The notes beneath the pieces were generated by a model. The model was not told the DNA's origin. It searched no databases and saw only the letters and a list, made by a program, of their open reading frames with translations. A DNA stretch of 64,000 nucleotides from sequence record OL770107; one strand, given 5' to 3'. Positions within the stretch are counted from its first letter, which is position 1, and each line of letters opens with the position of its first letter. This stretch comes from Escherichia phage CLB_P2. The translations under genes and the position numbers were made by a program. Below are positions 16,111 through 16,788 of the stretch, in pieces.

Positions 16111-16333
16111 ACAAACTACCGAACAGAAACTGCAATCTGAAATCGTTCTTCTGAAATCCCGTATTCTTGATACCCAAGATGCCGTTGCTCAGGCTCAGCA
16201 AGAATCTCGTATCCTTCAGGAAGCCCTTGGTAAAATCTGCCGTGCAGTCGGTATTGAAGGTGAGCAGATTAAAATTGATGACATCATCGATGCTGTCCAG
16301 GCCCTGATTCCAGAAGCTTCTGACGAAGAATAA
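16103..16333 (+). CDS. 57A: tail fibre assembly chaperone gp57A
   Basis: 76 aa coiled-coil protein; matches T4 gp57A size and position. Confidence 0.8.
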
Positions 16334-16788
16334 TGAAAACCGAAGATTTTGCTCAAGGTCTATACGTTGCTGCAAAATTCTCTGAATTGACTTTAGATGC
16401 GCTGGAAAATCTTCAGCGCACTTTAAAGGTTCCTAATCCAGTTCCTCGTGAAAAATTCCATTCTACAATCTGCTATTCAAGAGTCAACGTTCCATACACT
16501 GTTGCATCCGGAAGTTTCGAAGTTGCTTCGACAGGACATCTTGAAGTGTGGAAACATGGTGATTCTCCCGTCTTGGTACTGGTTCTCGATTCAGAGTATC
16601 TTAAATGCCGCCATCAGTATGCTCGTACCTTAGGTGCTACGCACGATTTCGATGATTACACCCCTCATATCACATTGTCTTATAATGTAGGACCTCTTAC
16701 CTTTAGTGGAGATGTCCAGATTCCTGTCGTTTTAGATAGAGAATATAAAGAACCCTTGAAGCTCGACTGGGCCGAGGATTTAAAGTGA
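16333..16788 (+). CDS. 57B: 57B / Acb1-like 2H phosphoesterase (anti-CBASS candidate)
   Basis: 151 aa (T4 57B/Acb1 152 aa); two H-x-T motifs (HSTI, HITL) typical of the 2H phosphoesterase fold; synteny after 57A. Confidence 0.6.

Follow-up and report, generated by a model that had tools for sequence, protein, structure and literature searches.

Genetic organization of the acb1 locus

The window analyzed here is a stretch of 64,000 nucleotides from Escherichia phage CLB_P2 (record OL770107). At 16333..16788 on the + strand, the ORF list and our direct reading of the DNA give an ATG-initiated open reading frame of 151 amino acids followed by a TGA stop, the gene we refer to as acb1 (gene 57B). 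The strand opposite 16333-16788 holds only one 31-aa ORF in the ORF list, and thus no alternative gene there. Upstream and on the same strand are gene 4 (13403-13852), gene 2 (13840-14676), gene 3 (14759-15349) and gene 1, which encodes a dNMP kinase (15349-16110), all assigned by Pfam and by tblastn with T4 proteins, followed by gene 57A for the tail-fibre chaperone (16103..16333; Pfam GP57, E = 4e-27, and synteny). Downstream of acb1, a 69-aa ORF that begins with GTG (16785-16994, +) lies between acb1 and an ipI homologue (17073..17351, +), which shares 56% identity with T4 IPI in tblastn and matches Pfam IPI_T4 with E = 1.4e-26. Beyond ipI come trna.4, trna.3 and trna.2 and then three tRNA genes (Met-CAT, Asn-GTT and Arg-TCT; 18858-19090, +) identified with Rfam, whose scan of the window returned nothing else. 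JS98 carries the same set of three tRNAs, whereas T4 has eight tRNAs together with rnaC/rnaD and segB. Overall, the + strand order 4-2-3-1-57A-57B-(69-aa ORF)-ipI-trna.4/.3/.2-tRNAs is the T4/JS98 arrangement, except for the 69-aa ORF that separates 57B and ipI in the window and has no T4 counterpart. In T4, acb1 adjoins ipI, whose product inhibits GmrSD restriction, an arrangement likened to an anti-defence island (Hobbs et al., PMC9117128), and this neighbourhood of acb1 and ipI is also present in the window.

The genes around acb1 are tightly packed. The TAA stop of 57A overlaps the ATG of acb1 (TAATG), and the acb1 stop in turn overlaps the GTG that opens the 69-aa ORF (GTGA). These overlapping stops and starts suggest that 57A, acb1 and the 69-aa ORF would be co-transcribed and translationally coupled. 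Within 13000-19500, sigma-70 promoters and terminators were found at chance frequency (21 versus 20.2 expected and 4 versus 4.0 expected, respectively), and the TATAAATA late-promoter motif was not enriched across the window (6 versus 7.9 expected). Since these consensus scans are at chance level, we claim no dedicated acb1 promoter. Two back-to-back TATAAATA motifs, which correspond to the T4 late-promoter consensus, occur at 13369-13376 (+) and 13384-13391 (-). The short intergenic stretch that holds them is flanked by ORFs at 12754-13356 (-) and 13403-13852 (+), which occupy the places of genes 53 and 4 on the JS98 map. This arrangement is consistent with late transcription that diverges from the gap, and the + strand motif, which starts at 13369 shortly before gene 4, may drive the 4-2-3-1-57A-acb1 block late in infection.

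The N-terminus of the 69-aa ORF (16785-16994) resembles those of the T4 internal proteins (MKTYQEFIAEA in IPII/IPIII, MKTFKEF in IPI). The N-terminal sequence of T4 internal proteins is a capsid-targeting signal that is cleaved by the prohead protease. The 69-aa ORF matches PHROG 23867, a family of unknown function, and returned no match in a Pfam search. It occurs in 28 phage records only, from Dhakavirus, EcS1, Citrobacter Merlin/CF1-like phages and one Erwinia phage, and is not annotated as a separate gene in JS98 or JS10. This ORF may encode an extra injected internal protein at a variable ipI locus. The ipI homologue next to it shows a start-site ambiguity of its own: the mechanical ORF begins at the ATG at 17061 (MEIKMKTYQEF...), but it is a second ATG, at 17073 (MKTYQEF...), that resembles the start in T4. 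Automatically annotated ipI genes may therefore carry four extra N-terminal residues.

Assignment of the 57B protein to the Acb1 family

To the Pfam family Acb1 (PF23474), the 57B protein gives a match of 197.8 bits (cut-off 27; E = 8.8e-59) that spans protein residues 8-149 and the whole profile (positions 1-144 of 144). Among solved structures, its top match is Acb1 in PDB entries 7T26/7T27 (E = 4.2e-59, residues 9-148); both are of Erwinia phage FBB1 Acb1, 7T26 in the apo form and 7T27 bound to 3'3'-cGAMP (PMC9117128). In a four-way alignment, the protein is 85% identical to T4 gp57B (NP_049750.1; sequence NP_049750 taken from NC_000866), 99% identical to JS98 gp57B (YP_001595271.1) and 66% identical to FBB1 Acb1. 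The JS98 protein is encoded at the same locus and differs from the window protein at two amino acids (T67S and D86N). The alignment with T4 gp57B contains no internal gap, and the window protein is one residue shorter at its N-terminus. The first-pass annotation had described an ORF of the same length and position as T4 57B; its position, immediately after 57A and before ipI, is that of T4, and its length is 151 aa versus 152 aa for T4 gp57B. We predict a 2H-phosphoesterase fold from the 66% identity over 140 residues to the crystal structure 7T26. A single-sequence AlphaFold2 model of the 57B protein had a mean pLDDT of 44 and a pTM of 0.33, too low to be informative about the fold.

Homologues of 57B were found by tblastn in 1,471 phage records, nearly all of them T4-like phages of enterobacteria, Acinetobacter, Aeromonas and Vibrio, and some of these records are already annotated 'anti-CBASS protein Acb1'. 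An identical protein is encoded by Escherichia phage Esco_phi_B-01. Over 13000-20000 the DNA matches Dhakavirus CLBP2 at 100% identity and JS98 at about 94%, which places the window in a JS98-like Dhakavirus (Straboviridae, Tevenvirinae). Neither the type of gene nor the phage lineage is new: Acb1 is known from earlier work, and members of the lineage have been sequenced before. JS98-like phages and Dhakavirus were not found in the supplementary files of Hobbs et al. 2022 that we searched.

A more remote similarity came up when the Acb1 query was compared with PDB 8hds chain A, the Pam3 portal protein, in whose C-terminal part (residues 498-616) there is a weak match (E = 0.046) with two His motifs aligned (HVTIAYS and HISLS). 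This hints that the Pam3 portal protein may carry a fused 2H/Acb1-like domain, at a score too weak to conclude.

Catalytic and ligand-contact residues

Both of the His-x-Thr motifs that the first-pass annotation had picked out in the 57B ORF are present, HSTI at aa 43-46 (nt 16459-16470) and HITL at aa 112-115 (nt 16666-16677). They are the only Hx[ST] motifs among the six histidines of the protein. Taken alone, the motif pair is weak evidence: at least two HxT motifs arose in 6.1% of composition-preserving shuffles of the 57B protein (n = 100,000) and are found in 2 of the 76 window ORFs of at least 100 aa. The case for Acb1 rests on homology.

The T4 enzyme provides the reference for these positions. 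Its HxT/HxT tetrad, H44/T46/H113/T115, is the acid-base catalytic centre under the scissile phosphate (Hobbs et al. 2022, PMC9117128), and the H44A/H113A mutant is catalytically dead (PMC9117128). Window residues H43, T45, H112 and T114 correspond to this tetrad without gaps and with a numbering offset of one residue. The first catalytic motif, H43-S44-T45 (T4 H44/T46), is encoded at 16459..16467 (+) and the second, H112-I113-T114 (T4 H113/T115), at 16666..16674 (+), with positions from the alignment to T4 and FBB1 and roles from PMC9117128. The alignment with T4 Acb1 that had been proposed as a check therefore places both motifs on the catalytic positions. All four residues are invariant in 11 homologues with identities down to 26%, where they are among just 13 invariant columns. 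This alignment includes T4, FBB1, Serratia Muldoon, Acinetobacter AbTZA1, Phi1, two Aeromonas phages, a Vibrio phage, Cronobacter GAP161 and Salicola SCTP-2.

The residues that hold the ligand are retained as well. In T4 Acb1 the bases stack on Y12, W74, F107 and W147, and E141 contacts the adenine N6, a contact that explains the adenosine requirement of the enzyme (PMC9117128). All of these published T4 contacts are identical in the window protein, as Y11, W73, F106, W146 and E140. By alignment, the Y11 codon (T4 Y12, nucleobase stacking) lies at 16363..16365 (+) and is invariant across the homologues. The W73 codon (T4 W74, nucleobase stacking; 16549..16551, +) marks a position that holds an aromatic residue (W or F) in all but one of the 11 homologues, the exception being an L in Salicola phage SCTP-2, the most distant of those aligned. 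F106 (T4 F107, nucleobase stacking; codon 16648..16650, +) is F or Y family-wide, and E140 (T4 E141, adenine N6 contact; codon 16750..16752, +) is nearly invariant. Residues 145-152 in T4/FBB1 numbering form the C-terminal lid of Acb1 (PMC9117128). The corresponding aa 144-151, which include W146 (T4 W147), are encoded at 16762..16785 (+) and differ from T4 at a single position (LDWAEDLK in the window versus LDWADDLK in T4, with E148 for D).

In its catalytic tetrad, its stacking residues, its adenine-reading Glu and its lid Trp, the window protein thus agrees with T4 Acb1, as it does in its locus directly downstream of 57A and by ipI, whereas the N-terminal 8 residues and the loop of aa 74-79 diverge. 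Directly after W73 this loop reads HGDSP in the window and TQDGS in T4. The catalytic and ligand residues of FBB1 Acb1 also align with those of the window protein (66% identity, residues 9-148); FBB1 differs by an insertion or deletion of one residue in the loop that follows W73 and by an F where the window protein and T4 have W.

The acb1 ORF has no frameshift and no premature stop. Against T4, the Nei-Gojobori method gives pS = 0.75, which is saturated, pN = 0.13 and a dN/dS of about 0.03; against JS98 it gives dS = 0.071, dN = 0.006 and a dN/dS of about 0.08. These substitution ratios indicate strong purifying selection on acb1. The first-pass annotation had proposed an intact anti-CBASS nuclease at this locus, a proposal that is supported by the homology and by the kept residues, with 'intact' read at the level of the sequence. 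We conclude that the 57B ORF is almost certainly the acb1 orthologue of a JS98-like Dhakavirus, and that it would encode a small, metal-independent, 2H-phosphoesterase-type anti-CBASS enzyme; its activity, fold and substrate range are the parts of this assignment that we infer.

Alternative functions and the 'RNA ligase' label

Many database entries offer another name for this protein. In the JS98 record NC_010105.1 (3837-4292) and many others, 57B/Acb1 is called 'RNA ligase', and the name 'anti-CBASS protein Acb1' is confined to a handful of recent ones. Read literally, this name would make 57B an RNA ligase, or a LigT-like 2'-5' RNA ligase or 2',3'-cyclic phosphodiesterase that acts on RNA ends, for instance in tRNA repair. 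The idea has some basis, since PHROG 755, RefSeq and many phage records carry the label, the Pfam family 2_5_RNA_ligase2 gives a weak match (E = 0.028) and a tRNA cluster lies about 2 kb downstream of 57B. Enzymes of this type do occur in the 2H superfamily, and Acb1 itself opens a 2',3'-cyclic phosphate in the second step of its reaction. LigT/2'-5' RNA ligase 2H phosphoesterases (PF13563) share with Acb1 the two H-x-T/S motifs and a metal-independent chemistry via a 2',3'-cyclic phosphate, but they act on the ends of RNA and not on cyclic oligonucleotide signals, and the match of the window protein to them is below the family threshold. It amounts to 14.9 bits (cut-off 27) over a partial region (residues 61-122), compared with 197.8 bits for Acb1, and on these Pfam scores we rejected the RNA ligase reading. 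The T4 protein, 85% identical, degrades cyclic oligonucleotides (PMC9117128), and every residue that stacks on or reads the bases of 3'3'-cGAMP is kept in the window protein. The name is a legacy label derived from distant similarity within the 2H superfamily, and we found no ligation assay behind it. A role as an RNA ligase or RNA-end phosphodiesterase is, in our judgement, barely credible, and the RefSeq records of Dhakavirus that label 57B 'RNA ligase' are outdated on this point.

A subtler alternative accepts the homology and questions the activity: the protein could be an Acb1 homologue with a shifted or narrowed substrate range, or one inactivated by changes at positions other than the known catalytic and ligand-contact ones. 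Substitutions relative to T4 affect 15% of its residues, those of the loop by W73 (HGDSP versus TQDGS) among them. Loss of acb1 function, natural or selected, in some T-even-like phages also shows selection against Acb1 activity in some hosts (PMC13577387): in phage Bas43 the gene has a nonsense mutation, and Bas35 phages that escape type II Panoptes are mutated in acb1 (PMC13577387). Against this, the open ORF retains every published functional residue, its dN/dS of 0.03-0.08 is unlike that of a decaying gene, and all of the additional homologues assayed by Hobbs et al. (9/9) were active (PMC9117128). We therefore regard a shifted or inactive variant as very unlikely, and an Acb1 of the T4 type remains our preferred reading. 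Given the divergence of the W73 loop, the fine substrate preference could differ from that of T4. One could go further and propose that this divergence lets Dhakavirus Acb1 spare the decoy nucleotides monitored by Panoptes-type guard systems while still destroying CBASS signals; no observation points there, and we consider it very improbable.

Predicted mechanism and anti-defence content

T4 Acb1 was identified as a degrader of cyclic oligonucleotides by activity-guided fractionation (PMC9117128). Acb1 acts on cyclic di- and trinucleotides with at least one adenosine (3'3'-cGAMP, cUA, cAAA/cA3 and cAAG) and not on cGG or cA4 (PMC9117128), and cleavage of 3'3'-cGAMP and cAAA was seen with each of the 9 further acb1 homologues assayed (Hobbs et al., PMC9117128). 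The mechanism outlined below is drawn from the T4 and FBB1 orthologues; our results on the window concern integrity, orthology, residue conservation, selection and synteny.

By analogy with these orthologues, the window Acb1 would bind, in a U-shaped pocket, those cyclic di- and trinucleotides from CD-NTases that contain adenosine. The bases would be stacked on Y11, W73, F106 and W146, the adenine N6 would be read by E140, and the C-terminal lid would close over the ligand. Distortion of the ligand would then allow a 2'-OH to attack the 3'-5' phosphodiester, with H43 and H112 as general acid and base and T45 and T114 holding the phosphate, in a reaction that would need no metal. A linear 3'-phosphate product would be released via a 2',3'-cyclic phosphate intermediate, and the messenger would be destroyed before the CBASS effectors fire.

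A second candidate anti-CBASS gene is found elsewhere in the window. At 30366-30644 (+) we observed a 92-aa homologue of T4 Vs.4 (Acb2), a cyclic-oligonucleotide sponge, with 67% identity to T4 Vs.4 in tblastn and a match to Pfam Acb2_Tad1_hairpin (E = 3.5e-16). With this homologue present, the phage has an anti-CBASS nuclease and a sponge, like T4. Since it carries homologues of both Acb1 and Acb2, we predict that it resists many CBASS systems and cA3-based signalling. Panoptes guard systems fire on cyclic-nucleotide depletion, and the phage is predicted to be sensitive to them (PMC13577387). The Acb1/Acb2 content is useful for choosing therapy phages or interpreting host range, and has little significance beyond annotation.

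Outside the acb1 region, we observed an ORF of 225 aa for a GIY-YIG (Seg-type) homing endonuclease at 9513-10190 (-). It shares 40% identity with T4 SegB at the N-terminus and matches Pfam SegE_GIY-YIG with E = 2.2e-5. The ORF is placed between a long ORF (7555-9513) and a 97-aa ORF (10187-10480), which by position we take to be the putative baseplate genes 6 and 5.4, respectively. The endonuclease ORF probably entered the baseplate cluster as a mobile element.
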